The notes under the pieces: generated by a model
Told to the model about the DNA's origin: nothing
Database searches by the model: none
Seen by the model: only the letters and a program-made list of their open reading frames with translations
In this document: positions 128 to 32,063 of the stretch, piece after piece
How positions within the stretch are numbered: position 1 is the first letter of the stretch
Layout: each line of letters starts with the position of its first letter
IMG/VR virus record: IMGVR_UViG_3300025712_000001
Strand: one strand, 5' to 3'
Origin: a virus
Length of the DNA: 58,105 nt
Position numbers and translations under genes: made by a program

Positions 128-1577
128 ATATATCATCATTCTCTATAGCATTCTTAAGGTTACCTATTATATGTGGCTTAGTTACCTGTGTAGTTCTAAA
201 GCCAACAACAGTTCCTTCTTCTTTTGATATAGAAGATATTTTAGTCTGTCTATATAAGTTTACATAATTCATTTGAGTAAGTCTAGATAATGTGGCTACA
301 CCCATCGAGTTACTTTCAACTGTTAATAAAGCGTTGTTATAGTATCTACCTAGATAAAACAACAAATCACCAAACTTACTAGGGTCTAGATAATTATCTC
401 TAAACAAAGCAATTACTCTTCTTTCTGTATCTAAAACTACAGCACTAGAGTAATCTTGGCCAACCCCTAAAGCTACATCTGCAGCTATAACATAGTTGTT
501 ATCCCAATCAGGATAATCCCATATATGTAGTTTACCTTCACTAGAAGTATCCCACGTACATGCATCATAATCAAAATTCATTTTCTTTTCTGGTTCTACC
601 GCTACAAGCTTAGCTGTCTTCTCTGCATTAAACACAGAAGAGCCAGCCGTAATAAACGCTTCATCAGGAGACGCTGGGTATTCCTGGCGGAACTTTAGTT
701 CCCCACCTTCAGCAATCTTCAACCGACGCCAGTAGAGTTGATCATTAGTTAAATCATAATCCTCTACCAGTAGTTCCTCTTCTGAGGAGCGTTCAAAACC
801 TTCCGGAGCTTCTCTACAATATTCTGGTGTATTATACCACGGAAGAAATAACGGGAGATAATCATTCTCTCCTGCTACAGCACCTTTCCATAACCTATAA
901 AATTCTCCCTTAGCACCATTAGCCGTAGACTCAATGATAACCTCAGTACCTGGAGCTTCTGATATACCCTGAAACAATCCAGCTAGAATTTTCTCATCGT
1001 GTATCCAGAATGCAACTTCAGATAGATGCGCAATTGTTGGAGTTGTACCTCGTCCCGCTTCGGGTGCACCTGCCGTGTATAGTCTGTAAGAACCCACTGG
1101 CCTATCGCCCGCATCATTCTTAGGAAAGTGTGGAGCAGAAATAACGATTTCCTTTGCATTGGACTTCACCTCATCAGGTCTATACTCAGGATTCATATTC
1201 TTTATAATATTTCTACTCATTGTAAACAAGGCATCCGAAGTAGCACTATCATGTGCCATAACTACAGATCGTGCATGGGGAGTATAGTATGTTTTCCAAA
1301 ATACTCTACCCGCACAATAAGTCGATATGCCTTGCTGTCGAGCCTTCAAGATAATAGCGCGGACCTTACCGGTCTCCGCTAACTGCTTATCCAATGCTTT
1401 TGTGATTTCATCTTGACACGCGTTAAAATTAAAATCAACAAAGCCAGCTCTAGCATCTTTTGTTATAATCTTTATATTATCTTTAGCAAAGCTAGTGAAG
1501 TCACTTTCATATTGTTTAAGCTTAGCTCTTTTCTGCTTTTCTTCTAGCAGCTTTAATAGCTTCTTTCTATCTTTCAT
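1..1577 (-). CDS. terL: Terminase large subunit, first 525 codons (the CDS runs off the window start and continues at 57888..57978 because the record is circularised)
   Basis: Absent from the ORF track because this piece has no stop. My minus-strand translation from ATG 1577 (SD GAGGA upstream) stays open to base 1: MKDRKKLLKLLEEKQ...ILKARQQGISTY (Walker-A-like)...TIAHLSEVAFW...VIAADVALGVGQDYSSAVVLD (RNaseH-type nuclease)...GCHDDTVMATAIA. 91 + 1577 nt gives 556 codons in frame with ORF 57888..58088. Confidence 0.9.
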   Translation of the reverse strand, partial: MKDRKKLLKLLEEKQKRAKLKQYESDFTSFAKDNIKIITKDARAGFVDFNFNACQDEITKALDKQLAETGKVRAIILKARQQGISTYCAGRVFWKTYYTPHARSVVMAHDSATSDALFTMSRNIIKNMNPEYRPDEVKSNAKEIVISAPHFPKNDAGDRPVGSYRLYTAGAPEAGRGTTPTIAHLSEVAFWIHDEKILAGLFQGISEAPGTEVIIESTANGAKGEFYRLWKGAVAGENDYLPLFLPWYNTPEYCREAPEGFERSSEEELLVEDYDLTNDQLYWRRLKIAEGGELKFRQEYPASPDEAFITAGSSVFNAEKTAKLVAVEPEKKMNFDYDACTWDTSSEGKLHIWDYPDWDNNYVIAADVALGVGQDYSSAVVLDTERRVIALFRDNYLDPSKFGDLLFYLGRYYNNALLTVESNSMGVATLSRLTQMNYVNLYRQTKISSISKEEGTVVGFRTTQVTKPHIIGNLKNAIENDDILIPSKIMIQEIRDYIATESGKTEAAPGCHDDTVMATAIALET

Positions 1578-1869: not shown

Positions 1870-2044
1870 AGCTTCTATAAAAATACCCAAGAGTATTTTT
1901 TAAATAGTATCTTAAACTAACCTATTTAATTTACCAAGTAGTTTACTTGTAGTACATCGTGTAGAATCTATTAATAACTACCGACGTCCAAGCTTTCTAC
2001 CAGTAACTAAATCAATCTATAAAAACTCATGAAAGGAATATACT

Positions 2045-2376: not shown

Positions 2377-2400
2377 AAAAAACGCCCAAAAGCGTTTTCT
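2377..2400 (+). promoter_or_regulatory. Conserved 23-nt hairpin element, copy 1 of 3 (terminator, processing site or hairpin promoter)
   Basis: AAAAACGCCCAAAAGCGTTTTCT has a 7-bp stem AAAACGC/GCGTTTT. It starts 6 nt after the stop at 2371, and exactly 29 nt separate it from ATG 2430. Confidence 0.5.
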
Positions 2401-2965: not shown

Positions 2966-2988
2966 AAAAACGCCCGAAAGCGTTTTCT
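2966..2988 (+). promoter_or_regulatory. Conserved 23-nt hairpin element, copy 2 of 3
   Basis: AAAAACGCCCGAAAGCGTTTTCT starts 3 nt after the stop at 2963. It differs from copy 1 only in the loop. Confidence 0.5.
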
Positions 2989-16410: not shown

Positions 16411-16859
16411 TGCCAGATAAAAATAAACTAGACCAGTTATTCATGGACATTACTAATAAGATATCTAATATGTCTCATGATAACGGTACAAAAGTAGGTG
16501 CTATCATTGTTAAAGATGGTAACATATTAAGTATGGGTTACAATGGCATGCCTTCGGGCATGTCTAATAACTGTAAAGATAAACACGGTGTAACTAATAA
16601 AGAAGTTATACACGCAGAGGCTAACGCCATCTGTAAGCTAGCACAAAGTACAAGCTCGTCTAAAGGTGCCACACTATACTGCACGTACTCACCTTGTATT
16701 GAATGTGCTAAACTAATACTGCAAAGCGGTATTGAGAGAGTAATATATGCTAACGATTATCGCGATGTAAACGGTAGAATATTACTAGACGATCAAATTA
16801 AAATAGGTAAGGTACAATATGCAGGATCAACTTCATTATATACAGGAGAAGATACGTAA
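16410..16859 (+). CDS. dCMP deaminase
   Basis: HAEANAI and PCIECAKLI zinc-binding motifs of the cytidine/deoxycytidylate deaminase family. Confidence 0.9.
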   Translation: MPDKNKLDQLFMDITNKISNMSHDNGTKVGAIIVKDGNILSMGYNGMPSGMSNNCKDKHGVTNKEVIHAEANAICKLAQSTSSSKGATLYCTYSPCIECAKLILQSGIERVIYANDYRDVNGRILLDDQIKIGKVQYAGSTSLYTGEDT

Positions 16860-19011
16860 AGCTAAAGCTCATATAGCTTGTAGTCTACTAAAGATGTCTA
16901 CTAGTGCAGACTTACAAGCCTACCTTGTGTTTAGTATGGATACTATTCAACAACACTTCTCACGTAACAGTATACGCGGTAACAAATCATATCAAGGTGA
17001 AGCTAATCTAACTCACTTAAGTACTACTATAGGTACATATATTCTTGATGATATAAATTATTATCATGATGACCTACCACCTTGGGAATGGTTTAAACTA
17101 CGTGTAATGATGGGTGATTTAATGTTAGAAGGATTCTATCAAACACACCAGATAAATATAGGTAAGAATAAGAATGAAGAGTTCGTACCAATGGAAAGTC
17201 TGGATCGTAGTCTTAAAAGAAGTCGTACACATTACATAGTAGTTCCAGAGTTATGGAATCTAGATGTACCTGAAGGTAGTAAAGATCTACTGATAGGTAC
17301 TGATTTCACTAGACCTCTAGACATAGATGATATCATGCAGCCTACTGGCAGACCTGTTATAAAAGGTTGGACAGAACAAAGAACTGCTGAGTTTAAATAC
17401 TATATGCGTAGAGATTTCATTCAGAGTATGAATGTATTACAACAAACTCCTTGGAAAATTAATACCCAAGTTCGTGATATACTACATCGTAATCGCGATA
17501 AAATATTAAATCAACATAAGAAATTTCCAAAGAAATATAAGTCAAAGATTATAGAATTTGATTTAACTATGGCTCGTTCAGATTTAATAGATGATAGAAC
17601 TTTCTATCAATATACTGAAGCAGACTATCGTGGACGTATATACTACACTACACCATTCTTAAACTTTCAAAGTAATGATATAGCTAGAGGTCAGATGCTA
17701 TTCTCTAATGGAAAGCTTATGACAGCAGCAGGTATAAGAAGATTATACATACATATAGCTTGCTGCTACAACGAAACATATCATAAGGATAGTTTACCAG
17801 AGTGGCTAACGACAGACTATAAGCCATACCTTGAGGACGAGGGACTAGAAGATATATCAGTAGATAAGATGACGCTAGACGATCGCGAGGCGTGGACAGA
17901 GAATAACTTAAGACGTATACTAGACATAGCTTACAACCAGACAATAGACTTAACTGCCGAGAAACCTATAACATTTCTTGCTTGTGCATTAGAAATATAC
18001 GATGCAACATCAACTGATGAACCTTGGTACACACATCTACCTATACCTATTGATGGTAGTAATAACGGATGGCAACATCTATGCGCTATGTCTAAAGATA
18101 AAGAAGCTGCTGAACTTGTGGGTATTGTACCTCAGAAAATACAAAAAGATTTCTATGTACAATGCGCTAAGAATTTAATCAGTAGAGTACCTGAATGGTT
18201 TGAAGAAAGGCAGATGCCTATGAAACATATCCGTAAAGGTATTGCTAAACGTGGATCTATGACTCGTGCTTATAGCGCAGGTGCTAAGAAGATTGCAGAG
18301 AATATGTATCTTGATTGTCACGTAGAAGGATACTTAGAACGATACAACATTACTAAAGATGATTGTCAACTGCTAGCTAAGCATTTAGTAAAAGCAATTG
18401 ATGATGTATGTGCTGGTCCGCTACAGACTATGAAGTTTCTACAGAAGATAGCTGAAGCAGAGATTGCTTCTGACTTTGCTAAAGAAACTAAACAAAAATC
18501 TATAAGATGGAAAACACCTAGTGGATTCCCAGTTATATATGAAGCATTCATAGATAATGAATTCAAAGAGAAGGCTATCATAAGCTGCAGTCAAAGAGAA
18601 ATTAAACCTGTTATTAGAAAAGAGGACGGAACAGAAGAAGTAACAGATACTATACGCATACAACATGTTGGCAAAGAGAATACAGACAAACCTAAAATCA
18701 AATCATTTATGTCTGGTATATCTCCTAACTTTGTGCACTCAATGGATGCTGCGCATATGGCTAACGTAATACAACAATGGGATGGAGACTTCGGTGCTAT
18801 CCATGATTCATTCAGCGTACACGCATGTGATGTTGATGAGTTACTGCAGATAATCAAAGATGAGTTCATACATATGTACGATCATAGAAATTACTTTACT
18901 ATTATTGAACGTATGATTATTACAAACTCAGATAATTTTAACTATACACAACCAAGGACAGGATCTTTGGAGATAAGAGAGGTGCAAGACAGTGAATACT
19001 TCTTCGCGTAA
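16819..19011 (+). CDS. Single-subunit DNA-dependent RNA polymerase, T7-like, compact (730 aa)
   Basis: DYRGRIYY (DxxGR); PIPIDGSNNGWQH (motif A); ISPNFVHSMDAAH; IHDSFSVH (motif C). The C-terminus EYFFA parallels T7 DFAFA. Confidence 0.95.
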   Translation: MQDQLHYIQEKIRKAKAHIACSLLKMSTSADLQAYLVFSMDTIQQHFSRNSIRGNKSYQGEANLTHLSTTIGTYILDDINYYHDDLPPWEWFKLRVMMGDLMLEGFYQTHQINIGKNKNEEFVPMESLDRSLKRSRTHYIVVPELWNLDVPEGSKDLLIGTDFTRPLDIDDIMQPTGRPVIKGWTEQRTAEFKYYMRRDFIQSMNVLQQTPWKINTQVRDILHRNRDKILNQHKKFPKKYKSKIIEFDLTMARSDLIDDRTFYQYTEADYRGRIYYTTPFLNFQSNDIARGQMLFSNGKLMTAAGIRRLYIHIACCYNETYHKDSLPEWLTTDYKPYLEDEGLEDISVDKMTLDDREAWTENNLRRILDIAYNQTIDLTAEKPITFLACALEIYDATSTDEPWYTHLPIPIDGSNNGWQHLCAMSKDKEAAELVGIVPQKIQKDFYVQCAKNLISRVPEWFEERQMPMKHIRKGIAKRGSMTRAYSAGAKKIAENMYLDCHVEGYLERYNITKDDCQLLAKHLVKAIDDVCAGPLQTMKFLQKIAEAEIASDFAKETKQKSIRWKTPSGFPVIYEAFIDNEFKEKAIISCSQREIKPVIRKEDGTEEVTDTIRIQHVGKENTDKPKIKSFMSGISPNFVHSMDAAHMANVIQQWDGDFGAIHDSFSVHACDVDELLQIIKDEFIHMYDHRNYFTIIERMIITNSDNFNYTQPRTGSLEIREVQDSEYFFA

Positions 19012-19364: not shown

Positions 19365-19412
19365 AAAAGCCCCTAAGAATACCGTAATGGTACTCTTAGG
19401 GGCAATTTTTTT
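19362..19412. terminator. Bidirectional rho-independent terminator at the convergence of the two arms
   Basis: AAAAAA-GCCCCTAAGAATACC-GTAAT-GGTACTCTTAGGGGC-AATTTTTTT. The stem is 19369..19403. It is homologous to 6611..6643, with compensatory base changes. Confidence 0.8.
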
Positions 19413-22400
19413 ATCCAATATTTTGAGACGTAAACTTTTGTCTATCTACTTCTTTAAATATCTTAGCTTTATTAGCATTAGTAACTCTTGATAGTTGAGC
19501 ATTTCTAGAACTTAAATTAATATGATCGTTAATTATCTTAGTTATTTCATATATCTCTCTGTTAGTTAAAGATTTTGAATACAGCGGACTAGGTATACCA
19601 GCCTTCTTTATAGCATTTAATATAGACTTTCTTTTTTCGTAAGCCATTAATCCTGTACGATCTTTATAAGCTTCAGTAGTTTCAGGTTGTCTAAGTTTTA
19701 CTAGCTTTGCGTCTGATCCTATACCTTGTATCGCTTTACCCATAGGAGGCACGCTTTGAGATCTTGATATAGCATCAGTAAGATATATGTCTTTGCCAAG
19801 AGTTCCATCCTTTTTAACTACTGTAGTAAATAAGTAAGCAAGACCTTTATGCTCACCCTCTCCTCTTCTAGCAGCTTCCCAATTAACTTTTACATTAGCA
19901 TTAGCTCCTGTCATCTTAGCTTTATAATCTTTTAAAGCTTTAGAATACCATTCATCAGTAACTGAAGTAAGATAACTATGATCTCTTATACTATCAGCCC
20001 AATTTTTATTAGACTCTCTACGTACAGCTTCATAAGAACCAAGATCAGTAACAAAAGCATCAAATATAGGAAGCATAAATGCTCCTTTAGCTCTGTTCTG
20101 TTTAGCTTCTTCAGATATTCTTTTCCAAGAAGCTCCTGTACCTGTGCGAGCAACCATATTTCCATCGTAAGCTTGAACACCAATAGCTTGTATTCTACCT
20201 CCGAAACCGCCAGGACCTAGATCTTCGCGTATAGCAGAGCCAGATACTTTAGAACCGTAGAACTGAGTCGTTATGTTTTGTACTTGACCTGTATCTTCTT
20301 CAGGACTGATCTTATAATTATATGATTTATCAATAAAGCTTTCTTTACCTGCTGCATAAGATTTAAAACCCATAGCATTAGTAAATACTAGTGGTATGTC
20401 TGTCATCTGAGCATACAGTGCATTAGCTTTCATAACTTTACCAGCAGCTATAACGTGATTACTTAAGATATTAAATATAGAATCAACAAGCATTGTATGT
20501 AAGAATAACAAAGCCGCAGGTTGAGAAATTCCATGCTGATTAATTAACATCTGTATTTGTTCAGAAGATTTACCTGTATCTATAACTTCTTTTACATGTT
20601 GCTTAAGTGATTCAATCTCTTGCCCATATCCCATAGTCATAGGAGATTTTTTAAGGAAGATATTCCTATCACCAATAGCTAATTCAAGTAGTTGTTTATA
20701 TACTCCTTGCTGATGTTCTGGATATAGTGTACCTTGAAATTCACTAAACTTAGATAACATATCTGTACCCATAGCATCGCGTAAATCTGGTAAGTCTGTA
20801 GCATAGTAGTCTTGATCTCTTAGTAAACCAGCACGCTGTGCCATTTCATAAACACCAATCAATGCAGCATTAGTAGCAGGACCGTGCGTACGGCCATCAA
20901 TTTCTACAGTTATAGATGTAGAAAACTGTGAATTATTAGCTGCAGCTTTTTCATATTTAGCTAGATCCATATAATAATCAGCATACATAGGAGCTTCTTT
21001 ATCATGACTTGCTAGATCCTTCTTAAGATCAGAGAATTCAGATAGAGGATCTATAGAATACAAGTTACTATTACTAATATCTTGTTTAATAGCATTGATC
21101 TCTTGTAAAGACTTAGCATTACTTAATCTTTGTATATTCTCTTTAGCCTTAGTAACATTGAAATTACTCTCAGCATTAATTAAAGCTTGACCAAAAGTAA
21201 CTGCCTTCCAATAAGAAGAAGATTTATTTCTTCTTTGCTCTTCAAATATTCTCAGGCGTTGTGTTGTAGACAGTTTATCTATAGTCTTAGCATCAGGATC
21301 CGCTGCTACTAGAGGATCTGTCAATATCCTTGCAGCTATTATCTCCTTCCAATTAGTTTCTAATTTACTACTAGATCTAGGTTTAAATGTGAACACGTTA
21401 CCACTACCAACAACACTACGTATTATCTTATGTGATTGTGGATTATATAACGTTTGTTGAACATGAGTACGACCTGTTAAAGCTTGCACAGCATAAGTAA
21501 TGTAGTTAACTTTATCACCGTACCTAGATATAGCTCCTATTAAATTAAACATTTGCTCTCGTTCTTGTTGAACTATTTGCATAGGATCATATTTAGATAT
21601 GACATCATCTAATGCTAAGATTCTATCAGCGTTAGCTTCAGGATCAGCCATGAGATCAGCTAGTTCAACTTCATAAGCTCTCTTCTGTTGCTCTGCTTTT
21701 CTTATTCTTTTCTCACCTACTTCAAACATATCTGCATAGTAATTACTTCCGTTATCAGTATTACCATTAAAGTTTTGTAAGGCTTGCATAGCAAACATTA
21801 AAGATAATGCTTCTCTATTAGGATCACTGATAAGACCTATGCTGTTATAGTTTCTAACTGATTGCTCTATCAAAGACATATCGCCTAAATCTTTATCCAT
21901 AACAGTAGTTCTTTTACGAGTATATCTTTGTCCTTCGTAAGCAAGCTGACCAGTTGGTTGATTCTGAGGAGGTACTTCTTTATTTGCAAACAAAGCTTTG
22001 AAGCTGTTGTTAAGAGTATTAAGATTACTTATACCTTCAGGAGTAAGAATAAAATCTACTTGTCCTTTATCAATACCTGTAGCTGACGCATCTCTATAAA
22101 GCATATTAGGATTAGCTGCGCTATACATTTCTTTACTTAAATCACCGAGTAAAGTAAAAGTTTCTTGAGAAATATTACCTGCATCTTGTACGTAAGTATC
22201 TGTAGGTACTCCATCCATTAAAGCTTTCTGTCTTCTCCAGGTTTCATAAACTTCTTTACCTAAGATAGCACTACCTTTAGACTTAGATATTTTCTTAGGT
22301 CTATATGCTTCAGGCTCAATGTTTTGAATTTCAATATCATTAGGTATAACTTCAAGACTATCGTCAACATCTGAACTAGAATCAGAAGATATTAAAGTAT

Positions 22401-23061
22401 TATAAAGATAACTTTCTACAGATAAGGATAGAACTTTACCTAATTCTGGATCAACTCTAATTGCACCTGTAGCTTCGTCGTATTTACCAGCATCTAATAT
22501 ATCTGGATCAAATAACAAAGAAGTTAAATTAACTCCTGTGATCCCACCCTTTTTAGCAGGTACAAATTTATCCGGTGCAGCTTTACTTCGAGTAGCTTCA
22601 TCAAAGCCTTCACTAATAATTTCACCTTGTTTGTATTCAGTTATAGAAGCATTAAGTCTTTCATTAATAGCTTGACCTGTATCCTGTGCTCTTTGTAATG
22701 CAGCATTCATAGGAGAAGTCTCTGCATAAGAAGAAGGTAGAAGCTCAGCCATGTTTAACTTTTCAGATAAAGCTGAAACTCTTTCACGTTTATATTGCTC
22801 TAACTCCTGGTCATTCATATCAATAGGATCAACTGGATCAGGAGTTGTAAGTGTATCTCCAACAATATCTGTTCTACCTTCATCTAACACAGTATCGATT
22901 TCGCTTGTTGGTTGTGTTTCAATTACAGGTTCAGTATCAATAACCTCTGTAGCTGTAGGCACAAAGTCATATAGTCTACTTCTCATTTCATCGACAGCGT
23001 TTACAACAGGTGTTACACCTGGTGCTACGCTACCTCCGCCTTTACCACCTTTTCCTGCCAT
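19411..23061 (-). CDS. Large virion-operon protein with single-subunit RNA polymerase motifs (candidate N4-like virion RNAP), 1216 aa
   Basis: EIDGRTHGP (D722; T7 motif A is DGSCSG). KKSPMTMGYG (K804..Y812 G813; T7 KRSVMTLAYG). VQAYDGNMV (D966; T7 VHSQDGSHL). PIFDAF (D1001; T7 IHDSF). Spacing A to C is 279 aa versus 275 in T7. It is the last gene of the ejection-protein operon. Confidence 0.55.
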   Translation of the reverse strand: MAGKGGKGGGSVAPGVTPVVNAVDEMRSRLYDFVPTATEVIDTEPVIETQPTSEIDTVLDEGRTDIVGDTLTTPDPVDPIDMNDQELEQYKRERVSALSEKLNMAELLPSSYAETSPMNAALQRAQDTGQAINERLNASITEYKQGEIISEGFDEATRSKAAPDKFVPAKKGGITGVNLTSLLFDPDILDAGKYDEATGAIRVDPELGKVLSLSVESYLYNTLISSDSSSDVDDSLEVIPNDIEIQNIEPEAYRPKKISKSKGSAILGKEVYETWRRQKALMDGVPTDTYVQDAGNISQETFTLLGDLSKEMYSAANPNMLYRDASATGIDKGQVDFILTPEGISNLNTLNNSFKALFANKEVPPQNQPTGQLAYEGQRYTRKRTTVMDKDLGDMSLIEQSVRNYNSIGLISDPNREALSLMFAMQALQNFNGNTDNGSNYYADMFEVGEKRIRKAEQQKRAYEVELADLMADPEANADRILALDDVISKYDPMQIVQQEREQMFNLIGAISRYGDKVNYITYAVQALTGRTHVQQTLYNPQSHKIIRSVVGSGNVFTFKPRSSSKLETNWKEIIAARILTDPLVAADPDAKTIDKLSTTQRLRIFEEQRRNKSSSYWKAVTFGQALINAESNFNVTKAKENIQRLSNAKSLQEINAIKQDISNSNLYSIDPLSEFSDLKKDLASHDKEAPMYADYYMDLAKYEKAAANNSQFSTSITVEIDGRTHGPATNAALIGVYEMAQRAGLLRDQDYYATDLPDLRDAMGTDMLSKFSEFQGTLYPEHQQGVYKQLLELAIGDRNIFLKKSPMTMGYGQEIESLKQHVKEVIDTGKSSEQIQMLINQHGISQPAALLFLHTMLVDSIFNILSNHVIAAGKVMKANALYAQMTDIPLVFTNAMGFKSYAAGKESFIDKSYNYKISPEEDTGQVQNITTQFYGSKVSGSAIREDLGPGGFGGRIQAIGVQAYDGNMVARTGTGASWKRISEEAKQNRAKGAFMLPIFDAFVTDLGSYEAVRRESNKNWADSIRDHSYLTSVTDEWYSKALKDYKAKMTGANANVKVNWEAARRGEGEHKGLAYLFTTVVKKDGTLGKDIYLTDAISRSQSVPPMGKAIQGIGSDAKLVKLRQPETTEAYKDRTGLMAYEKRKSILNAIKKAGIPSPLYSKSLTNREIYEITKIINDHINLSSRNAQLSRVTNANKAKIFKEVDRQKFTSQNIG

Positions 23062-26000
23062 TAGTTATACTCCTTCTTTTTAGGTTTAATCGGTTCGGAT
23101 TTACCGAATATACCTTCAGCAATATTCCTATTAAGTCTATTAAATGGTCCGACAAGTGGAGCAGTTTTTAGAAATGCATACAAACCTTTATCAGGTTGAC
23201 CTTGTATTATTTTTCCTGCGCCAGAATATACACGAGATACATTAGATAATCCTGCTGCTTCTCCAGATAAAGTATTGAAGAACCATTCTGCTGGATTATC
23301 TGATGACTTTTCATAGATAGGATACACAAAGTTAAGAACTCTTTCACCAGTACCTAATAATCCTGATGCACCTATACCTCTTTGTATTTTCTCTACAGGA
23401 TCTAAGTAAGGAGTCGGTTCTCCATATTTAAGTAAATCTTTTAGATACTGAGATAAGAATCCTAAGAATATCATAGTTGTCATAACAGCAAATGCATTAT
23501 ACTTAAGTGATGGGTTACCACGTTTAACGTACTCACCCCACATCTTAGGTATTTGATTAGCTGTAAATGTAGATATAAAACCTTGGAACTGAGTGAACAA
23601 AGCAAGATGCTGGTTCTGATAGAACAAAGGTCTGTTCGCTGTATTAGGAAGTGCAATAGCTATATTAACAAAATTAAACTCTGCGTCAAGCATCATAGTA
23701 TCAAACTCTGCAGTTTGCTGAGGTGACCATGGACCTTGTTGCATGTTAAGATTAACAAGTAAATTTACATTTATACCTAAGTTTCTAAGAAGTTCTTCTG
23801 ATTCTTGCACATCATTATTTTTAGGTACACCAGATTTTCTTTGATCTATTATAGTATCTAAATGATTCATAATATAATCATCTGCTATAGATGCACGTAT
23901 GCTACGCGTATAATCTGTCCATTGTTGCAGACCTATTACTCTAAAATACTTATCTAATAAACGTCTTGATCCATGAGTAGTTTCTGTAGCACCGGTTGTT
24001 TGTGCTGCGCCTACGTCCCAATCAAAGAAGCCGAGAGCTTTTATTCTAGCTTGTCTTTTTTCTTTGCTTAACTGTCTGTTAGTAGAGTTCCATCTTGGGT
24101 CAGTCATAGTAGACCACATAGCTTGCGCTGCTTCTTTAGATGCGTTACGTATCTCTTTAAATATTATATCTGGAGGTATGCTAACTGTTGTAATAGCTAA
24201 TTCAACAAATGAAGATATAGTTGCTAAAGGTAAACCAGCTACAGTAGTCCATACTCCTATATTTTTCTGTATCTTAGAAAGACTAGAAGTTTTAATACGT
24301 TTATAGTTACCTGATTCAGCGTTTAAATAGTCTTGCATTTGTCTTGCTATTCTATTTACTTCCTCTTCAGGTACACCTTCTTTTACAGCATTGTTTAAAT
24401 GGAAAGCAATTTTCTCATTACCGTCACCTAAAAATTCCTGGTATGTAATGAATCTTGAAGCTGACTTAGACGCGTTAGATATATTAATAAAGGCGTCAGT
24501 CTCCATAAACTCTAAGAATTCTTTTCTCTCTGATAAACCTAGCGTACGTCCTCTATGAGAGGCAGGTATAAATTTACCTTCACCTACATTAAAGTCTTGC
24601 TCACTGCTTAAAGTATCTTGATTGAGAATATTATCAGTTAGTGTTGTAGCATCAGACTTACTCATTTTAAATGTAGTCATAAGTCTTTGTATAAACTTTG
24701 CTCTGTTCTTTTCAATAGCAGCTTTATTAAATGATTTGTATTTCATTAGATAATTCTTAAGCTTGCCAACGTTAAAGGCTTTACCATTAGACTTAGCAGC
24801 TTTTTCTTGATCTGCGTATAGCTTTTCACCAAGCATAGTTACATCACTGTAGTACTGTCGTAACCAAGTCTCATGAACTTTTAAATCAGCAGGTAAAGTA
24901 TCCCATTTTATATCGCTACCTGTTTTATCTCCTAACCACATTCCAAAAGAAGTAACTATGGCAGATATACCCGCTTGATCTACTGTTTTGAATCCAGCTT
25001 TCTGTGCGTATTCTGCAGGACTAGAAACTAAATTGCGATACTGAGTTAACAAATGTTTCTTTCTATTTTCAAAGTTAACACCGGAAAACGTACGCTGTAA
25101 GTTTGCTCCGAACATATCAGCAAGTTTACGTAATGAACGAGACTTTTCTTGTAGAGTATCTGAGAATATAAAACGAGTAGATCCTCTCCATAAAGCGGGC
25201 ACAGATTCCCATGCTCGTTTAACTCTTTGCCAAGTATCCATCTCTTTATCAGATGCTGAGCTTTCATTACTACGTTCACTTAAAGATTTATTAGACGCAT
25301 CAATATCTTTTACATTATATTTAGCCTCTATTGCAGAAGCTTGCTCAAGTCTTGATACATAATCACTATCAGTTTCTGGTGCAATTGACATAGTACCATC
25401 TGCTAATATAACACCTCCACTTTTTCTTTGTGGAAGTCTTAAAAAGTCTATTTTCTTTTGATCTCTTTTAGATATAGGTTTAGCTTTAGTACTTTTAAAT
25501 ATATCAATACCTGTTTCTTCATTAAGATCTTGTATAGTAGGTATATAACCATTCTCATTAAGCTCTGCTTCTGCTTGAGCTCCAGCTCTTGATAGTTTAT
25601 TTGGATCCGCTTCAGCTTGTCTCACAGCTATATCAGTCCAAGCTCCTACGTCAATCGCTGTTCCTGGTATAGAAAATCCTGCACCAAGAGTACCACCAGC
25701 TATAGTAGCATTAAGTAATCTATTTTGTAATTCAACAGCATCAAATACTTTATCACTACCTACTACAGCAGCCATATAAGCCGTTGCTTCTTGCATAGCC
25801 TCAGTAACACCCTCTGTTGCTGCTCCTCTGCCTCCTCTCTGAGTAAGAGAGCGTAGTATATTACGAGCTTTAAGTTGTTCTTTAGCTACAGTTGCAGCAG
25901 CTCCTGTTAGTAACGCCGCTTCTTTTCTAGTAGCTTGAGCTACAGCACGACGAGCTTGGTCTATAGTTAATGTATTTCCAGGTTTAGCTAGTAAACCTTT

Positions 26001-27221
26001 AGCTGCTTTCTCAGCAACTTCTTTAGACATTAGAGTACCTGTAATACCTTTTAAACCTAGTCTATCTAATACGGCCTGAGTTATACCAGCAGCAACAGCA
26101 AGTGTAGAACTTTTATTATCACCTTCCATCTCATTCCAAGTTTGACCTGTATACATTGCTACTATCGGTAGCATAGATGCGCCGTAAGTAGGAGCAGCCA
26201 ACGCTGTACCGACCATAGTTGCTCCCATATAAGGCAGAGATACTACAGCATTGTTACCTAAGAATTCAAAGAATTCTCCAATATTTTTTATATCCCAGTC
26301 ATTACCCACAGTATTACCATCTGCATCTAGCTCAGGTTTCAAAGCACTTAATTTTATTTGAGGAGAATCTTCTAGCTTAGCTCGCAGTCTAGTTATATTC
26401 TGCTCTCCGTAGTTTTCCATCCAGTCAAAACCAGTTTTCTCACCAAGCATATCTGCAATACCGTACAGACCTTCCATAGCTCCAGTTGTTCCAACGTCCC
26501 ATGCTGTGCTTAAAGGATGCTTAGAGTCATTCATCAGGTCTCTATCGTTACTACGTATGTCTACTATATCTGTAGAATATGTTTTAGCTAAACGCTTGCG
26601 TGCTTCGTATACCTCTATTGACTCACCTGGTTGACGCTCAGAAAATAAGCTACCTAATTGTTTCTCATTAAGAGCTACTTTCTTTACTAGATCACTATAA
26701 TCTCCTGACTCTGCATCAGTAGCTCTCTTAATTAAGTTAGCACCTACTTCCCAATCAGTCATAGTTTCTGCATATGGTGATTTACTTCTACTCAATTCAC
26801 CAAAAGCTTCTGCTTCTATATCGCTATCAGAGCTATAGATATTTGTTGAGGCTAAACCTTCAGCTACTAGCGTTGATGTAAAATCAGTACCATATTTATC
26901 TGTTAGTCTAACCATTTGTCGACTTCCAGTAGTATCCATCTTAGGACTACCGTCTTCGTTAGTAAGGTAAACTACTTTTGTAAAACCTTTTTCATTAGCT
27001 AATCTAGGTATTATCTCATTAGTCATTGCACCACCAGCGGTACCTTCAGTTACAGTACCGTCTGGTAATACTCTGGATATTTCAGCTGCTTCTAATCCTT
27101 CAATACGAAGTAGCTTATCATCAGGACTTATTAAAGTATCGGGATCAGAGAAAATGAAACCACCACTATCTTTTAAAGTACGATCTGGTAATTCAAAATT
27201 CTTTAAACGACTAGTTCCCAT
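23061..27221 (-). CDS. Large internal virion / ejection protein, 1386 aa
   Basis: Size and position follow the T7 gp15/16 logic. Hydrophobic segments lie near the C-terminus (VWTTVAGLPLATISSFVELAITTV, FAVMTTMIFLGFLSQYL). The N-terminus has a weak staphylococcal-nuclease-like pattern. AAGGAG SD. Confidence 0.5.
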   Translation of the reverse strand: MGTSRLKNFELPDRTLKDSGGFIFSDPDTLISPDDKLLRIEGLEAAEISRVLPDGTVTEGTAGGAMTNEIIPRLANEKGFTKVVYLTNEDGSPKMDTTGSRQMVRLTDKYGTDFTSTLVAEGLASTNIYSSDSDIEAEAFGELSRSKSPYAETMTDWEVGANLIKRATDAESGDYSDLVKKVALNEKQLGSLFSERQPGESIEVYEARKRLAKTYSTDIVDIRSNDRDLMNDSKHPLSTAWDVGTTGAMEGLYGIADMLGEKTGFDWMENYGEQNITRLRAKLEDSPQIKLSALKPELDADGNTVGNDWDIKNIGEFFEFLGNNAVVSLPYMGATMVGTALAAPTYGASMLPIVAMYTGQTWNEMEGDNKSSTLAVAAGITQAVLDRLGLKGITGTLMSKEVAEKAAKGLLAKPGNTLTIDQARRAVAQATRKEAALLTGAAATVAKEQLKARNILRSLTQRGGRGAATEGVTEAMQEATAYMAAVVGSDKVFDAVELQNRLLNATIAGGTLGAGFSIPGTAIDVGAWTDIAVRQAEADPNKLSRAGAQAEAELNENGYIPTIQDLNEETGIDIFKSTKAKPISKRDQKKIDFLRLPQRKSGGVILADGTMSIAPETDSDYVSRLEQASAIEAKYNVKDIDASNKSLSERSNESSASDKEMDTWQRVKRAWESVPALWRGSTRFIFSDTLQEKSRSLRKLADMFGANLQRTFSGVNFENRKKHLLTQYRNLVSSPAEYAQKAGFKTVDQAGISAIVTSFGMWLGDKTGSDIKWDTLPADLKVHETWLRQYYSDVTMLGEKLYADQEKAAKSNGKAFNVGKLKNYLMKYKSFNKAAIEKNRAKFIQRLMTTFKMSKSDATTLTDNILNQDTLSSEQDFNVGEGKFIPASHRGRTLGLSERKEFLEFMETDAFINISNASKSASRFITYQEFLGDGNEKIAFHLNNAVKEGVPEEEVNRIARQMQDYLNAESGNYKRIKTSSLSKIQKNIGVWTTVAGLPLATISSFVELAITTVSIPPDIIFKEIRNASKEAAQAMWSTMTDPRWNSTNRQLSKEKRQARIKALGFFDWDVGAAQTTGATETTHGSRRLLDKYFRVIGLQQWTDYTRSIRASIADDYIMNHLDTIIDQRKSGVPKNNDVQESEELLRNLGINVNLLVNLNMQQGPWSPQQTAEFDTMMLDAEFNFVNIAIALPNTANRPLFYQNQHLALFTQFQGFISTFTANQIPKMWGEYVKRGNPSLKYNAFAVMTTMIFLGFLSQYLKDLLKYGEPTPYLDPVEKIQRGIGASGLLGTGERVLNFVYPIYEKSSDNPAEWFFNTLSGEAAGLSNVSRVYSGAGKIIQGQPDKGLYAFLKTAPLVGPFNRLNRNIAEGIFGKSEPIKPKKKEYN

Positions 27222-27234: not shown

Positions 27235-30200
27235 TTATTTAGTAGATTTCTTAGTTGGTGTAGGTCCTAAGCCAGACAATTCTCTACGTAACCAAGCCAT
27301 AAATATAGATTCACCTGGTTTAGTATTATTTGTTACTGTTTTATTTATATATTCTGGATTATCTAACATATCTTGATTGAACAAGGCTATGGCATTCTTG
27401 TATTTAAGATCAAGTTGAGATCTACCTTCAAATGTTTTCCATGTTGATATAGGAGATTTACCACTCTTCATGAACTGTTCATTTAATGCTTTTATACGAT
27501 CATCATTAGGAGTCTTTCCATCTAACGGATCAAACAAATTACCTCCTCTATTAGCAGTCTGACGTACTAAAGCGGCATCTAAGAATACTTTAATATCACC
27601 AGGTTCTTTCTCAGGGTTAGCTCGCATATAAGATATCATATTCTCATAAGCAATTTTACTAACACTACCAAGATTAGCTGCATCGAAACCGTAACTCATA
27701 GCCCACTCAGCAGTTTGACCAGCCATAGTTTTCGAACCAGCTGTAAGTCTTGTAGCAGGATGTGTGTCATCTTTGACATCGTTCTTTATCCATTCATCAA
27801 GTTGACCTTCAATTAAATCTGTATTAGTTTTAAGTAATGACGAGTAACCTTTAGATCCTTTAACACGTGAGTCATCTGTTGTCCAGTCCATATTCATAGG
27901 CTGCATATAGCCTGGTTTATTTTTGTCATATGGATTAAGTGTATAGTATTGCTGCTTGACGCCATCAGCTCCAGTCATTTCTACTTTTATTGCCATGTCA
28001 CGTTTGTTAAGCTTAGGATTATAAAATTCTTTTCTATCACCTTTTAACGCATAGCTACTACCAGTTTTAATAGATTTTAAGTCACTTAAATTTCTAGACT
28101 TTTTATATTTCTCAATAGAAGCTGGCGTATACAGTTTAGCTGCAATAGCTTTCTCAACATTCTTAGCATGAGACGCATCTTTATTTTCCATACGTTTAAG
28201 ATAGTACTTACCAGACCAAGCTAGTGAACCGTTATGTGAAGCTCCCATAGCACGAGAGCCTAGATACAAAACAGCCATACGTGCTAGCTCTTCAGTGTCA
28301 AATAGATTACCAAAGTATTTACTAAGAAATGATTTAGTTTTTACAAACTTAGGATTTTTATTTTCTAATGCTTTCTTTACGACACCATCTAAATTAAAAG
28401 ATTCTCCTAATCCTAATTCTGCATTACCTTTCTGTTCAACAGTATTTACGTCAAAGTTTTCAGCACTACCATCATCAAGACTATCTAATCTACTAGTAAG
28501 TGCACCTGAATTTGCTAACTGATCATCAGTTAATCCAAGACCTTCAGTATCTATTATATCATTAGCTGCGGGACCTATATTTACTCCCTTCTTTAGATAA
28601 TTCTGTGTATCTATTTTAGCCGGATCTATATTCTGCCTTTTTGCCCAATCTTCAAATGAAGGGAAGTCAGCAATGCCTAATCTATTAGCATTACGTTTAG
28701 CATCTTTATATTTTAACATTAACTTTTTAGTTTCTTTTTCTGCATCTTTTCGTCTTTTAGTTTCTCTATCTCGCCATCTTCTAGTTTCTGCAGTACCTGT
28801 CTGTGTTGCTTGACCTTTAACTATAGATATTTTTGAATTAATTTCACCTAAGACTTCAGTTGTTTCTTTAGAAACTTGACCGTTAAGTTTAATTTCGTCA
28901 TTAGCTTTATTTGTTAATTCAGCTTTACGCTTATTAAGTTCTTCTAAGCTTGCAGCTGACGGTGGCTGATACTTTGAAAGTTTAATTTCAGAATCGTTAC
29001 CTTTTTGAAAGTCAACAAATGCTTGCATTGTTTCAGTGTCAGCTACACGTCCATAGCTATCAGTAAGTACTCCCTTATCGTCTACTGTATATAACATATT
29101 TGTATCTTTACGGAAGATTACATCACCATTACTAACATTTTGTGGGACTTTTTCTGGTCCGTATACTTTAGAATTTATATCGTATGTATCTTCAATTAAA
29201 TTACTATTAACAGTATTAATACCTCTGACTTCGCTTTCTGGTATATTGTAAAAATTATTACCAGTAATAGGAACTCGCTGACCTAAGCTATTTATCTGCG
29301 TTTGTCTTTGCATACCTGCTTTAGAATCTGCTTCATTAATAACATCTGATGTGCGCGCTTGTTCTGCATCATCATATGGATTACCAAATGCATCATAAAA
29401 CGTAGGATCAATAGGTGCTACGTCTATCTTTGGAGGCATCGTATCTTTTGGAATATTCATAAACTCATCTGCAGATGGTACATCTCCTGGTACGCCTGTG
29501 TAATAATTTTTATTGAATGCATCTTCACGAGCTGAACTATTATTATAAGCAATTCGCAATGCTTCTGCTCTCTCACGTTTAAGTGCATCTATTTTCTCTG
29601 CGTATTTCATAGTTTGTAAACGATCCATACTTAATTTATCAACAGCTCCGAATCTTTCTTCTTGTGCCTCACGTAAACGCTCTGCTTCTTCTTTCTCAAG
29701 TTTATCTTTAATAGTATCTGCCATAGTTTCAAATGTAGGTGCATTAGAATAATTATAAGTTGGCGCTGATCCCGGCATAGGTATTCCGCTTCTGTAGTAA
29801 TCTCTTACTTCATCACCAACAGCGTAGTACTGAGGTACTGGACCACCAGCTTGTCTATATATACTATCAAAGTATCCTTGATCTGCGTTGTAATAATCTA
29901 TATATCTTTTGCGATAGTCTTTACGCAAATCCCTATAACCAGACACAGCATCACGAATAAAGTCTCCGGCCCTGTCGAGAAAACTAGGATCTTCAGTCGC
30001 AACCTCTTGTGCTGAATTTCGGGCCTCTAGTGTTGCTATATCTTTATCTATTTCCTTTAAAGATCTAATAGGTTTACCTAAAGTTTCTTGTGTTATTGCT
30101 GGATACATAGTTTCATCAGCAGCCATCGCTCCTGTTAAATCTATATCTCCGAATTCATTAGGAGCCATTGCTCCTGCTGGATCTACAGGTTCTCGAACAA

Positions 30201-31008
30201 TAAAATCGTTTGCAAACTTTGCACGATTAGGTTGTAAGTCACCTTTATATTTTTCAAAATCTAATCCAAAAATATCAGCTGCTTCTCCTGGCGTTTTAGC
30301 CATATTGATTTTATTTCTAACTGCTCCATACTCATCTGTGTTATCCATTTCAGAAATCATAAAGTCAAGTTGAGTCTTAGCATCTAATGGACTTACATTG
30401 TTATCAGCTGCAAATTTTAAAAGATTGTTATTATCTGTATCGTATCTACCTCCAACTTCATATTGGAATAATCCTCTACCAGGGCCACCTGTATTTTGAT
30501 TAGCCGCTGGATCAAAGTTACTTTCATGTTTAATATTTCCTAAAATACCTTTCGCAGCATTAGAAGTAAAACCTTTAGATATTAAATAAGCATATATTTC
30601 TTGAGGATCCATTGAACTACTTTCATAAGGAACAGTTTGTAATGATACTCTATCTGCTTCTCTACTATCTATAAGATTTTGCATAGCTTCATTATTTCTA
30701 CGTACTGGCTGACCTGCAGCTGCATACATAGCTTCAGACGGATGGTTATGTGGCTCACCATTCTGCATCTTTCTTCCTTCATCATTAATATTCTTTAACA
30801 ATGGTCCATACATATCAGTAGCTTCTTTGTTAATAACAAACTCACCGGGTGTCAGCCATGCAGGTACTGTGTCAGTTCCTTTAGGTTCTCCTGGATGGTT
30901 AGGCATACTCGTCATACCTGGTACTTCCATATCCGCTGATCCCTCAAAGAATTCAAAAGACTTACTATTACCATAACGATCTTTTGTTTCATACTTTTTA
31001 ATCTGCAT
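27235..31008 (-). CDS. Internal virion protein with a peptidoglycan-hydrolase (phage tail lysozyme-type) domain, 1257 aa
   Basis: AAKGILGNIKHESNFDPAANQNTGGPGRGLFQYE...TQLDFMISEM matches the phage tail lysozyme domain pattern. TPGEFVINKEAT motif near the N-terminus; long coiled-coil region. Confidence 0.7.
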   Translation of the reverse strand: MQIKKYETKDRYGNSKSFEFFEGSADMEVPGMTSMPNHPGEPKGTDTVPAWLTPGEFVINKEATDMYGPLLKNINDEGRKMQNGEPHNHPSEAMYAAAGQPVRRNNEAMQNLIDSREADRVSLQTVPYESSSMDPQEIYAYLISKGFTSNAAKGILGNIKHESNFDPAANQNTGGPGRGLFQYEVGGRYDTDNNNLLKFAADNNVSPLDAKTQLDFMISEMDNTDEYGAVRNKINMAKTPGEAADIFGLDFEKYKGDLQPNRAKFANDFIVREPVDPAGAMAPNEFGDIDLTGAMAADETMYPAITQETLGKPIRSLKEIDKDIATLEARNSAQEVATEDPSFLDRAGDFIRDAVSGYRDLRKDYRKRYIDYYNADQGYFDSIYRQAGGPVPQYYAVGDEVRDYYRSGIPMPGSAPTYNYSNAPTFETMADTIKDKLEKEEAERLREAQEERFGAVDKLSMDRLQTMKYAEKIDALKRERAEALRIAYNNSSAREDAFNKNYYTGVPGDVPSADEFMNIPKDTMPPKIDVAPIDPTFYDAFGNPYDDAEQARTSDVINEADSKAGMQRQTQINSLGQRVPITGNNFYNIPESEVRGINTVNSNLIEDTYDINSKVYGPEKVPQNVSNGDVIFRKDTNMLYTVDDKGVLTDSYGRVADTETMQAFVDFQKGNDSEIKLSKYQPPSAASLEELNKRKAELTNKANDEIKLNGQVSKETTEVLGEINSKISIVKGQATQTGTAETRRWRDRETKRRKDAEKETKKLMLKYKDAKRNANRLGIADFPSFEDWAKRQNIDPAKIDTQNYLKKGVNIGPAANDIIDTEGLGLTDDQLANSGALTSRLDSLDDGSAENFDVNTVEQKGNAELGLGESFNLDGVVKKALENKNPKFVKTKSFLSKYFGNLFDTEELARMAVLYLGSRAMGASHNGSLAWSGKYYLKRMENKDASHAKNVEKAIAAKLYTPASIEKYKKSRNLSDLKSIKTGSSYALKGDRKEFYNPKLNKRDMAIKVEMTGADGVKQQYYTLNPYDKNKPGYMQPMNMDWTTDDSRVKGSKGYSSLLKTNTDLIEGQLDEWIKNDVKDDTHPATRLTAGSKTMAGQTAEWAMSYGFDAANLGSVSKIAYENMISYMRANPEKEPGDIKVFLDAALVRQTANRGGNLFDPLDGKTPNDDRIKALNEQFMKSGKSPISTWKTFEGRSQLDLKYKNAIALFNQDMLDNPEYINKTVTNNTKPGESIFMAWLRRELSGLGPTPTKKSTK

Positions 31009-32063
31009 TACTTTCCTCCGGAATTACTATCAGTAGAGTTATCTCCATCATCTGATATAACATCTCCAAACTCATTCATATTTCTTGCGGCTATACGTGA
31101 AGGTACAGATTTTATTTTACCATTTGGTCCACCACCATCAGGTTCTACAATTCTACTTGATTGAAACTTACCTGCTCTACGATCTAATTCTTGCTTAAGT
31201 AACGGAGACATAGTATTTGTTTGAATAGATTCACCAGTAACAGAATCTGTTATAGAACTCATTGTACCACCAGGAGTCATTATACTAATATCCCCTCCTT
31301 TATAATTACCCTCATTATCATAAGTAATAGATGTATCAGAGTCAGCGCCCATTACTCCGAACCCTTCACTCATACGATTTGTTGGTATGATGTCACCAGC
31401 ATTAGATCCAAATACACCTGATGTAGATTTAGGAGTACCTGCTCTTGATCCATCAAAGCCTATATCATATGGAGATACAGGTTTATTATTCATATATGCG
31501 TCACCAGTTTCATTAAAATTATCTTCCATAGAACTAGTATTAGTATTTATTCTACCCGCTATAGTATTCATAGGTGCATTTTCACCACGTAGTCTTGCAG
31601 TTCTAGCTTGTTCTTTTGTCATACCTGGATTTTCATCCATATATTTATACACTGAATTGTCGTAACTACCTAGCGCAGACTCTATCGGTCCCGTGTGGTT
31701 TCTTAATTTACCGTAACTATTTTTTAAAGTATTAAAACCTGTACCAGCATCTTTATATGAAGCTACAGCTCTACCTGTTATAGGGTCGTAAGCTCTTCCT
31801 GTAGAATCAAACACATTACCTTGTGCATCAGTTGTACCTTCATTACCGAATGTATCATTTTTACCTAATCCTAACGGACCTTTAAGAACACTCATACCAG
31901 GAAGTAAGCCTATTGGATTTGATTTACCTCGTTCATAACCTAAGTTAGCTGCTGCATCTTGTCTCGGAGTTGTCTGACCTGTCGGTGTATTATATCTAGG
32001 TACAGAATTCATATCTCTAAAACCTAGCCCCATAGTTTGAGGATTATTAATTGAAGTCACCAT
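31008..32063 (-). CDS. Putative internal virion protein, 351 aa
   Basis: ORF track. Gly/Asn/Thr-rich. Its stop overlaps the start of the downstream 1257-aa gene. Confidence 0.45.
   Translation of the reverse strand: MVTSINNPQTMGLGFRDMNSVPRYNTPTGQTTPRQDAAANLGYERGKSNPIGLLPGMSVLKGPLGLGKNDTFGNEGTTDAQGNVFDSTGRAYDPITGRAVASYKDAGTGFNTLKNSYGKLRNHTGPIESALGSYDNSVYKYMDENPGMTKEQARTARLRGENAPMNTIAGRINTNTSSMEDNFNETGDAYMNNKPVSPYDIGFDGSRAGTPKSTSGVFGSNAGDIIPTNRMSEGFGVMGADSDTSITYDNEGNYKGGDISIMTPGGTMSSITDSVTGESIQTNTMSPLLKQELDRRAGKFQSSRIVEPDGGGPNGKIKSVPSRIAARNMNEFGDVISDDGDNSTDSNSGGK

Follow-up and report, generated by a model that had tools for sequence, protein, structure and literature searches.

A cryptic second single-subunit RNA polymerase encoded at the end of an ejection-protein operon: a candidate virion RNA polymerase in a relative of roseophage CRP-7

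The cryptic polymerase gene and its motifs

IMG/VR virus record IMGVR_UViG_3300025712_000001 is a viral DNA of 58,105 nucleotides (nt), referred to below as the window when the whole stretch is meant. Its minus strand carries, at 19411..23061, a gene for a protein of 1216 amino acids (aa), which had been proposed from the letters alone to be a cryptic second single-subunit RNA polymerase (RNAP), possibly packaged in the virion. The listing of open reading frames (ORFs) contains this gene with the same limits and length, and all five polymerase motifs of the original prediction were recovered with the residues and nucleotide coordinates that it gave. The features of the gene, together with the canonical RNAP gene that converges on it, are as follows (Cys, cysteine; E, expectation value).

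19411..23061, minus strand: candidate virion RNAP gene, a cryptic single-subunit RNAP; ATG-started ORF, 1216 aa, 0 Cys
21469..21483, minus strand: T/DxxGR-type motif ALTGR, followed by YNPQSHKIIR; R531 at 21469-21471
20878..20904, minus strand: motif A, EIDGRTHGP; catalytic Asp D722 at 20896-20898
20623..20652, minus strand: motif B, KKSPMTMGYG (K804, Y812, G813), from K804 to G813
20152..20178, minus strand: VQAYDGNMV, counterpart of T7 'VHSQDGSHL'; D966 at 20164-20166
20053..20070, minus strand: motif C, PIFDAF; catalytic Asp D1001 at 20059-20061
16819..19011, plus strand: canonical T7-like RNAP, 730 aa, 11 Cys; PF00940, E 2.4e-57; phrog_414, E 2.8e-95

The spacings originally counted between the motifs, 279 aa from motif A to motif C and 90 aa from motif A to the Tyr of motif B, are correct, and the T7 motif strings cited for comparison match the T7 sequence in the hhalign output. 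The 730-aa gene is a bona fide T7-like RNAP, as had been supposed.

Database searches and residue conservation

Pfam and PHROGs scans of the 1216-aa protein gave no match. PF00940 did not match it at E<=1, nor six of its diverse long relatives at E<=0.01, and in the same Pfam scan the neighbouring 730-aa RNAP received the score listed above. The Pfam models of the virion RNAP (vRNAP) of coliphage N4 (PF21769, PF21894, PF21624 and PF21867) and the DNA_pol_A model (PF00476) were likewise without a match to the 1216-aa protein. The sequences of the PDB were matched neither by phmmer with the single sequence nor by profiles of 6 and 131 sequences, and tblastn against 50,697 GenBank phage records, in which two distant relatives from the family described below also served as queries, found nothing with the 1216-aa protein. 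The sequence libraries miss the polymerase because of its extreme divergence.

A word-indexed search of 5.8 billion proteins revealed only five close homologues (52-95% identity). The identical protein is present on 152 contigs (JGI, Logan, ENA and Tara), where it is always labelled 'hypothetical protein'. With a profile of six sequences, exhaustive HMMER searching recovered 254 cluster representatives at E<=1e-3 and 133 at E<=1e-30. The members of this family are mostly 1100-1300 aa long, and their conservation peaks across the region from motif A to motif C. A literature search found no description of the family.

The conservation of individual residues was counted in a 138-sequence alignment, whose members match the window protein at only about 20% identity. 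The numbers of relatives that share each residue are listed below.

R531: 138/138
D722: 138/138
G723: 137/138
K804: 137/138
M808: 135/138
Y812 and G813: 138/138
Q963: 122/138
D966: 137/138
D1001: 135/138, the remaining three being gaps

The same pattern was reproduced in alignments of 131 and 64 sequences. The motif residues are thus kept among the homologues, invariant or nearly so (n=138), a point on which the original prediction had staked itself. The family consensus, with 'DGKTNG' as motif A, 'K..MT.GYG' as motif B, 'P.PVQS.DAATV', and 'IYDAFK' as motif C, reads like that of a T7/N4-type RNAP and not of a Pol A DNA polymerase.

Some members of the family are extended at the C-terminus. 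In the case of P0134 (1463 aa), residues 1182-1361 form an extra segment that resembles parts of proteins of Bacillus phage AgentSmith and crAss-like phage cr126_1 (E 4e-21 and 4e-11, respectively; tblastn). The extension has no Pfam match, and the tblastn match in cr126_1 sits in a protein annotated as 'DUF1768 domain-containing'. This segment may be an effector fused to an injected protein.

Homology and predicted fold

Coliphage N4 packages a vRNAP of about 3500 aa, gp50, whose central domain is the mini-vRNAP (residues 998-2103; PDB 2PO4 and 3C2P). We compared the family with this enzyme and with T7-like RNAPs by running hhalign locally, the query being the 131-sequence family profile. The T7-like set (n=75) consisted of T7 RNAP, the window's own enzyme, gp30 of roseophage CRP-7 (a cultured relative, described below) and 72 sequences from related contigs.

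Against the T7-like RNAPs, hhalign returned a probability of 95.1% and an E value of 3e-8 over 309 columns. A single collinear alignment is in register for motif A, motif B, the H784 region and motif C, and places D722 on T7 D537, K804 on K631, Y812 on Y639, D1001 on D812, and the D966 segment on T7 H784-D787. Against the central domains of nine N4-like vRNAPs, the best-scoring group for the family, ahead of the T7-like enzymes, the probability was 97.1% and the E value 4.8e-11 over 428 columns. Here R531, D722, K804, Y812 and D1001 align to R424, D559, K670, Y678 and D951 of the N4 mini-vRNAP, and two stretches are nearly identical ('VEIDGRTHGP'/'VEADGVTNGP' and 'YNPQSHKIIR'/'YNPQSAKLVR'). 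The control comparison of N4-like with T7-like enzymes (79%, E 1.6e-5) was weaker than either family comparison, so that the family scores better with each of the two groups than these do with each other. Judged from these profile alignments, the polymerase is to be seen as a remote homologue of the N4 vRNAP core.

On the basis of the 64-sequence alignment, AlphaFold2 gave a confident model of residues 77-1216, with a mean predicted local distance difference test (pLDDT) score of 89.7 and a predicted template modelling (TM) score, pTM, of 0.89. When the model was compared with the PDB by Foldseek, the best 50 matches were all single-subunit RNAPs (T7, mitochondrial and N4). T7 RNAP (3E2E) was matched with E 8.9e-14, probability 1.00 and a target-normalised TM score of 0.56, the yeast and human mitochondrial RNAPs with E of about 1e-12, and the N4 mini-vRNAP (2PO4) with E 1.5e-11; no RNAP of the two-barrel (double-psi beta-barrel) class occurred among these best 50. 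Among the best 50 matches in BFVD, a UniProt-derived library of predicted viral structures, those with a name were T7-like RNAPs and pieces of N4-like vRNAPs, at identities of no more than 15%, and there was no close relative. The structural and profile comparisons proposed at the outset therefore matched both reference enzymes, by Foldseek and by hhalign alike.

Residue conservation, profile-profile homology and the predicted fold together support, at high confidence, the proposal of a cryptic second single-subunit RNAP. We regard it as nearly certain that the gene is real, that its product has a polymerase fold and that the active site is intact. On the evidence of sequence and model, the 1216-aa protein is predicted to be a catalytically competent, DNA-dependent single-subunit RNAP of the T7/N4 right-hand class.

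Gene order around the polymerase

The genes that precede the polymerase gene, and the hairpin that lies beyond its end, are the following.

23061..27221, minus strand: 1386-aa Cys-free virion protein; phrog_6958 'virion structural protein', E 2.9e-33
27235..31008, minus strand: 1257-aa Cys-free giant protein, presumed ejection protein; PF18013 Phage_lysozyme2, E 1.2e-27; cell-wall-degrading domain at aa 136-269 (nt 30202-30603)
31008..32063, minus strand: 351-aa Cys-free protein (0 Cys) at the head of the polymerase gene run
19369..19403, unstranded: GC-rich hairpin with a 15-bp stem and flanking A and T runs, from a terminator scan; between the converging arms

The polymerase gene's ATG (23059-23061) and the TAA that ends the 1386-aa gene before it overlap by one base (TAATG). 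The leftward arm of the genome encodes the portal, the scaffold, the major capsid protein, fibres, a ribonucleotide reductase, a 1427-aa virion protein and small proteins, and it ends with the 1257-aa lysozyme-domain protein, the 1386-aa virion protein and the cryptic polymerase, in this order. The rightward arm begins at about 1900 with small early genes, a thymidylate synthase, a Trp-halogenase-like gene and a Pol A DNA polymerase (11782-13632), and continues with a 5'-3' exonuclease, a primase-helicase, a dCMP (deoxycytidine monophosphate) deaminase and the T7-like RNAP. The T7-like RNAP gene is the last large gene of this arm and converges on the cryptic polymerase gene.

The hairpin at 19369-19403 has 34 nt in common with another GC-rich hairpin at 6609-6645, which closes the early-gene block; the stems are of 15-17 bp and flanked by A/T runs. 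Both are likely to be bidirectional terminators.

Gene order was read in 80 IMG/VR loci that encode a member of the family, in each as far as the contig reaches. It is invariant: lysozyme-bearing giant protein, 1386-aa protein, polymerase, convergent T7-like RNAP, primase-helicase and DNA polymerase. The 1386-aa protein is encoded directly upstream of the polymerase in every related locus extending that far, and a T7-like RNAP gene is present in every locus whose DNA extends to that region. For the 351-aa protein no PHROG match was obtained, and upstream homologues of it were seen in only some of the related loci. The claim that the polymerase gene is the final gene of the ejection-protein operon is thus borne out by the gene order in the window and in all 80 loci.

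Cysteine content and probable virion delivery

The polymerase and the 1386-, 1257- and 351-aa proteins encoded before it contain no Cys, which makes a Cys-free run of 4210 residues. The avoidance of this residue extends to the relatives: 125 of the 133 full-length members of the polymerase family are Cys-free and the remainder have one Cys each, and the homologues of the 1386-aa protein lack Cys in 45 of 48 cases. The N4 proteins gp52, gp51 and gp50 are ejection proteins (PMC13434306). There is no Cys among the 3500 residues of gp50, and gp51, gp52 and the cores of eight other N4-like vRNAPs are also Cys-free. The T7-like RNAPs contain between 7 and 14 Cys (11 in the window's own enzyme, 12 in T7 RNAP, 7-14 in 72 related ones), and the other enzymes of the window consist of Cys to 1.1-2.3%.

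The absence of Cys, the translational coupling to giant internal proteins, a gene position like that of gp50 and the likeness to the N4 vRNAP make a packaged and ejected enzyme the best explanation of the locus. The circumstantial case for packaging is much stronger now than the letters alone could make it. By analogy with N4, we consider it quite probable that the polymerase is a virion-delivered early RNAP.

Candidate hairpin promoters in the early region

The N4 vRNAP uses DNA hairpin promoters that are extruded by supercoiling (PMC13434306). In the window, we found four 30-nt elements with a stem of 7-8 bp and a CCRARA loop, all on the plus strand and within 1879-7390, where 0.16 would be expected.

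1879..1900, plus strand: hairpin 1, 8-bp stem, loop CCAAGA; within the divergent intergenic region that precedes the first rightward ORF
2379..2398, plus strand: hairpin 2, 7-bp stem, loop CCAAAA; ribosome-binding site and ATG 31 nt past its end
2967..2986, plus strand: hairpin 3, 7-bp stem, loop CCGAAA
7371..7390, plus strand: hairpin 4, 7-bp stem, loop CCGAGA; ribosome-binding site and ATG 31 nt past its end

Hairpin 4 follows a small minus-strand ORF, at the point where the gene run from thymidylate synthase to RNAP restarts. It is enclosed by an ORF called at 7278-7709 (plus strand), within which a ribosome-binding site and ATG stand at about 7422, 31 nt past the hairpin; the start of this ORF was probably called too early.

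Relatives for a survey of these elements were found via the thymidylate synthase gene. Their early regions contain one to five CCRARA hairpins each, always on the early-gene strand, with an invariant loop (mostly CCAAGA). The stems vary yet stay complementary, with compensatory changes in 6 of 8 stem pairs, and a conserved, T/A-rich TTATATACA-like box follows. A ribosome-binding site and ATG lie 28-68 nt beyond the end of 20 of the 26 distinct copies. In the late and replication DNA of 80 relatives, 1.31 Mb in total, neither strand contained a CCRARA hairpin. A scan of IMG/VR with a 14-mer for the hairpin was dominated by chance matches.

We considered the hairpins as intrinsic terminators and rejected this role, as the first copies stand in the divergent intergenic region, where they have no upstream gene, and the copies of more distant relatives have no T-run after the stem. 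Hairpin 1 in particular has no plus-strand gene upstream of it, and so is not a terminator for one. The hairpin sites are the starts of transcription units, not their ends.

In a second clade, hairpins with a TAWC loop occur on the early strand (in the DNA-polymerase loci, 12 on the early strand versus 1 on the other). The IMG/VR relatives L273 (2931-7749, five copies) and L248 (2939-3155, two copies) carry them exclusively on the early-gene strand, with variable stems of 7-9 bp, TAAC or TATC as the loop and, beyond the stem, a conserved TTC..ATA box. The sequences of the two clades hint at clade-specific pairs of polymerase and promoter. Neither CRP-7 nor loci L094-L097 yielded a recurrent hairpin family.

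Sites resembling sigma-70 promoters are not enriched in the window (88, versus 88.7 expected). A 22-nt motif, AAATGTCTCCTWTAAGAGGRRR, occurs twice, at 1644-1665 (plus strand) and at 39734-39755 (minus strand), where 0.01 would be expected; one copy lies in the divergent intergenic region, and the other precedes the ribonucleotide reductase gene. The motif could serve the T7-like RNAP as a promoter, or act as an operator.

The positional counterpart in roseophage CRP-7

The description of the phage as T7/phiKMV-like in the original prediction does not really apply: its sole cultured relative is the orphan roseophage CRP-7, and its layout is like that of N4. CRP-7 (MK613349), the closest cultured phage, shares the gene order of the window; its T7-like RNAP is 34% identical, and its genome is of 58,106 bp. 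The authors who described it noted a single RNAP (PMC6918029), and our literature search found no description of a second one in CRP-7. The positional equivalent of the polymerase is gp33:

17859-21566 of CRP-7, minus strand: gp33, 1235 aa, Cys-free

The CRP-7 proteins gp34 and gp35 are also Cys-free. Neither a hidden Markov model search nor single-sequence hhalign detected significant similarity of gp33 to the family. A 17-sequence profile of gp33 could be aligned collinearly with the polymerase core over 487 columns, with E 0.0022 and a probability of only 12.9%. Candidate motifs that are invariant in the gp33 family follow each other in the right order: TTR, E.DAR.SN, R.LVVAGLYGK, QGGDST and IHDA. 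For a homologue of gp33 (98% identity), the best 12 PDB matches of a mediocre AlphaFold2 model (pLDDT 63.6) are T7 and mitochondrial RNAPs, although these Foldseek matches are weak (E 3.8e-3 to 5e-2, low TM scores). Sequence and model suggest that CRP-7 gp33 is probably a still more divergent member of the polymerase family.

Proposed mechanism and alternative explanations

The explanation that we favour, and which as a whole seems fairly probable, is that the cryptic polymerase is packaged, ejected and starts early transcription. Late in infection it would be produced along with the giant internal proteins, whose last stop codon is overlapped by its own start codon, and would be packaged into the capsid. 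At infection it would be pushed through the tail, unfolded and Cys-free, along with the lysozyme-bearing ejection proteins, and would begin transcription of the rightward (early) arm prior to any phage gene expression, as N4 gp50 does. The likeliest promoters would be the strand-specific DNA hairpins found where early transcription units begin; that these are promoters of the cryptic polymerase we would neither favour nor disfavour. Later transcription would pass to the canonical T7-like RNAP, whose gene lies at the distal end of the early arm. In its general form the proposal is that a large, ocean-wide group of CRP-7-type podoviruses (about 55-60 kb) carries a free-standing, Cys-free 'mini-vRNAP' of about 1200 aa, which enters the cell along with two giant ejection proteins and recognises DNA-hairpin promoters that are specific to the clade; for this generalization we see the chances as evenly balanced.

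Several observations weigh against this explanation. The capsid, portal and fibre proteins of the window have only one or two Cys each; low Cys content is therefore general in virion proteins, and the Cys-free signal favours a virion protein over an ejected one specifically. Neither PF00940 nor the N4 vRNAP models of Pfam match the polymerase. No similarity was detected by hhalign between the families of the 1386-, 1257-, 351-, 201- and 140-aa neighbours and the N- and C-terminal domains of N4 gp50, gp51 or gp52, and none of these five neighbours contains an HExxH motif. With regard to the hairpins, the promoters of N4 have a stem of 5-7 bp and a loop of 3 nt, as against the stems of 7-8 bp and loops of 6 nt found here. 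The CCRARA form is absent from most other clades and confined to one sub-clade, and the compensatory changes seen in 6 of 8 stem pairs are an inflated count, because the hairpins were selected by requiring a stem. The hairpins could act at the RNA level instead. Finally, the case for packaging, ejection and enzymatic activity of the polymerase is circumstantial, and we infer all three.

A simple fusion of the three neighbouring genes as the origin of N4 gp50 finds no support in the sequences, the neighbours being without similarity to N4 components in hhalign.

If the protein is an active RNAP that is not packaged, it would be made late and act in the cytoplasm of the producing cell, for instance in the transcription of a special class of late genes or in the priming of replication or packaging, and host RNAP would carry out early transcription. 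The intact fold and active site suit such an enzyme as well. Host RNAP may indeed be the first transcriber of the rightward arm, as the layout allows it to serve the early arm and the T7-like RNAP the remainder. A phiKMV-style scheme of this kind, with host RNAP early and phage RNAP late, needs no injected enzyme, and the phage has its own T7-like RNAP, which is a further point against injection. We nevertheless consider the unpackaged enzyme rather unlikely. The avoidance of Cys (125/133) resembles that of the N4 ejection proteins and is unlike every cytoplasmic T7-like RNAP examined; translational coupling ties the gene, in an invariant position, to those of giant virion proteins; the family is nearer to the N4 virion enzyme than to the T7-like enzymes; and an enzyme made last in the late operon finds little left to transcribe.

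The position among ejection proteins and the lack of Cys would also suit an internal structural or ejection protein that derives from an RNAP but no longer polymerises, and serves as a scaffold, a DNA clamp or a genome-pulling motor. Transcription helps to pull the genome into the cell in T7 and probably in N4, which makes a DNA-binding role plausible. However, the catalytic residues (the two metal-binding Asp, the Lys and Tyr of motif B and the Arg of TxxGR) are invariant at about 20% identity, which is not what one expects of a scaffold without catalysis, and genome pulling by an RNAP would itself need catalysis; we regard the loss of activity as improbable. Still less probable, to the point that we give it little weight, is another chemistry on the same fold, for example a Pol A-type DNA polymerase, a primase-like or an RNA-templated enzyme. 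Pol A DNA polymerases and T7-like RNAPs have a common architecture of palm, fingers and thumb and a motif B ending in YG, and the substrate is not readable with certainty from sequence. Against this stand the best 50 structural matches, which are RNAPs and not DNA polymerases, a motif A of the form DG..(H/N)G as in T7/N4 RNAPs, a motif C with (F/Y)DA and not HDE, and the invariance of the Tyr equivalent to T7 Y639, the residue of ribonucleotide selection. Moreover, DNA_pol_A does not match the protein, and the phage has a separate Pol A enzyme.

Other features of the genome

Bases 1-127 of the window are 100% identical to 57979-58105; the identical 127-nt ends are therefore a circular-assembly overlap, and the unique genome is of 57,978 bp. 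Where a large terminase would be expected, a minus-strand ORF (at least 525 aa) runs off the window at 1..1577.

The protein of 515 aa encoded at 8838-10385 (plus strand) has a full-length match to Trp_halogenase (PF04820, E 9.9e-101). Its gene lies between those for thymidylate synthase and DNA polymerase, and is unusual in a phage replication module.

Two tail-fibre genes, at 44996-46318 and 46315-49425 (minus strand), each end in a Peptidase_S74 intramolecular chaperone domain, and the longer one contains 21-nt-periodic repeats at 48040-49302. The GC content is 0.43-0.46 across 44-50 kb, as against about 0.35 elsewhere. This suggests that a host-recognition module has been exchanged.

The capsid gene is closely followed by two adjacent small ORFs, 50906-51196 and 51211-51432 (minus strand), that have an 81-nt stretch in common at 88% identity, an indication of tandem duplication of a gene.

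Implications

Virion-delivered RNAPs are known from few lineages, namely N4-like, crAss-like and phiKZ-like phages. If the proposed mechanism is correct, this strategy extends to an abundant uncultured group of marine phages, and delivery of a phage's own polymerase would be a common start of infection among marine phages, not a peculiarity of N4-like and crAss-like ones. CRP-7 gp33 would bring the family to a cultured phage. The presence of two polymerases, and the position of the T7-like RNAP gene at the far end of the early arm, would be accounted for. The 3500-aa gp50 of N4 would then appear as a fused version of proteins that are separate here. As the family scores closer to the T7-like and the N4-like enzymes than these do to each other, it is useful for reconstructing the evolution of single-subunit RNAPs. 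In practical terms, an enzyme this compact (about 1200 aa), if supplied with a defined hairpin promoter, would be a new addition to the orthogonal tools for transcription.

Comparison with known systems

The crAss-like (phi14:2 gp66) and phiKZ-like phages have virion RNAPs that are delivered with the DNA and give host-independent early transcription. The strategy proposed here is alike in that the polymerase is carried in the particle. The enzymes differ in class, theirs being of the two-barrel (multisubunit) type and the one described here having the right-hand T7/N4 fold.

With T7 RNAP the polymerase has in common the collinear motifs and the spacing from motif A to motif C (279 aa here, 275 aa in T7). 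It differs from the T7 and mitochondrial RNAPs in its low identity to them (about 12%) and in its extra N- and C-terminal regions, the protein being some 330 aa longer than T7 RNAP. It also differs from T7 RNAP in having no Cys, as opposed to 12, and in being encoded in the structural module of a genome that has a canonical T7-like RNAP as well.

The operon as a whole resembles those of the internal proteins of T7 (gp14, gp15 and gp16) and N4 (gp52, gp51 and gp50), in which such proteins are encoded as a run, one with a cell-wall hydrolase (PF18013 here), with the largest last. The ejectosomes differ in that there are three proteins of about 1200-1400 aa here, in place of a small, a medium and a giant one, and no sequence similarity to the N4 components was found.

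The closest parallel is with N4 itself. In N4, gp52, gp51 and gp50 end the leftward late arm and converge on gp49 and the replication arm, and the polymerase gene of the window is in the same place; the core of gp50 and the 1216-aa protein have the fold, the catalytic residues and the Cys-free state in common; and candidate hairpin promoters are present in the early region here. The differences are also clear. The analogy originally drawn with the N4 mini-vRNAP holds for size, but the enzyme is here a free-standing polypeptide of 1216 aa and not the middle third of a 3500-aa protein. For the N-terminal domain and the C-terminal HExxH and C2 domains of gp50, we found no counterpart here. The distance from motif A to motif C is 279 aa, as against 392 aa in N4, and the genome is of about 58 kb, as against 70-75 kb, in a phage that lies outside the Schitoviridae. 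What is new, therefore, is a candidate virion RNAP that is related to the N4 enzyme yet compact and free-standing, and that occurs in a non-schitovirus lineage with a T7-like RNAP of its own.

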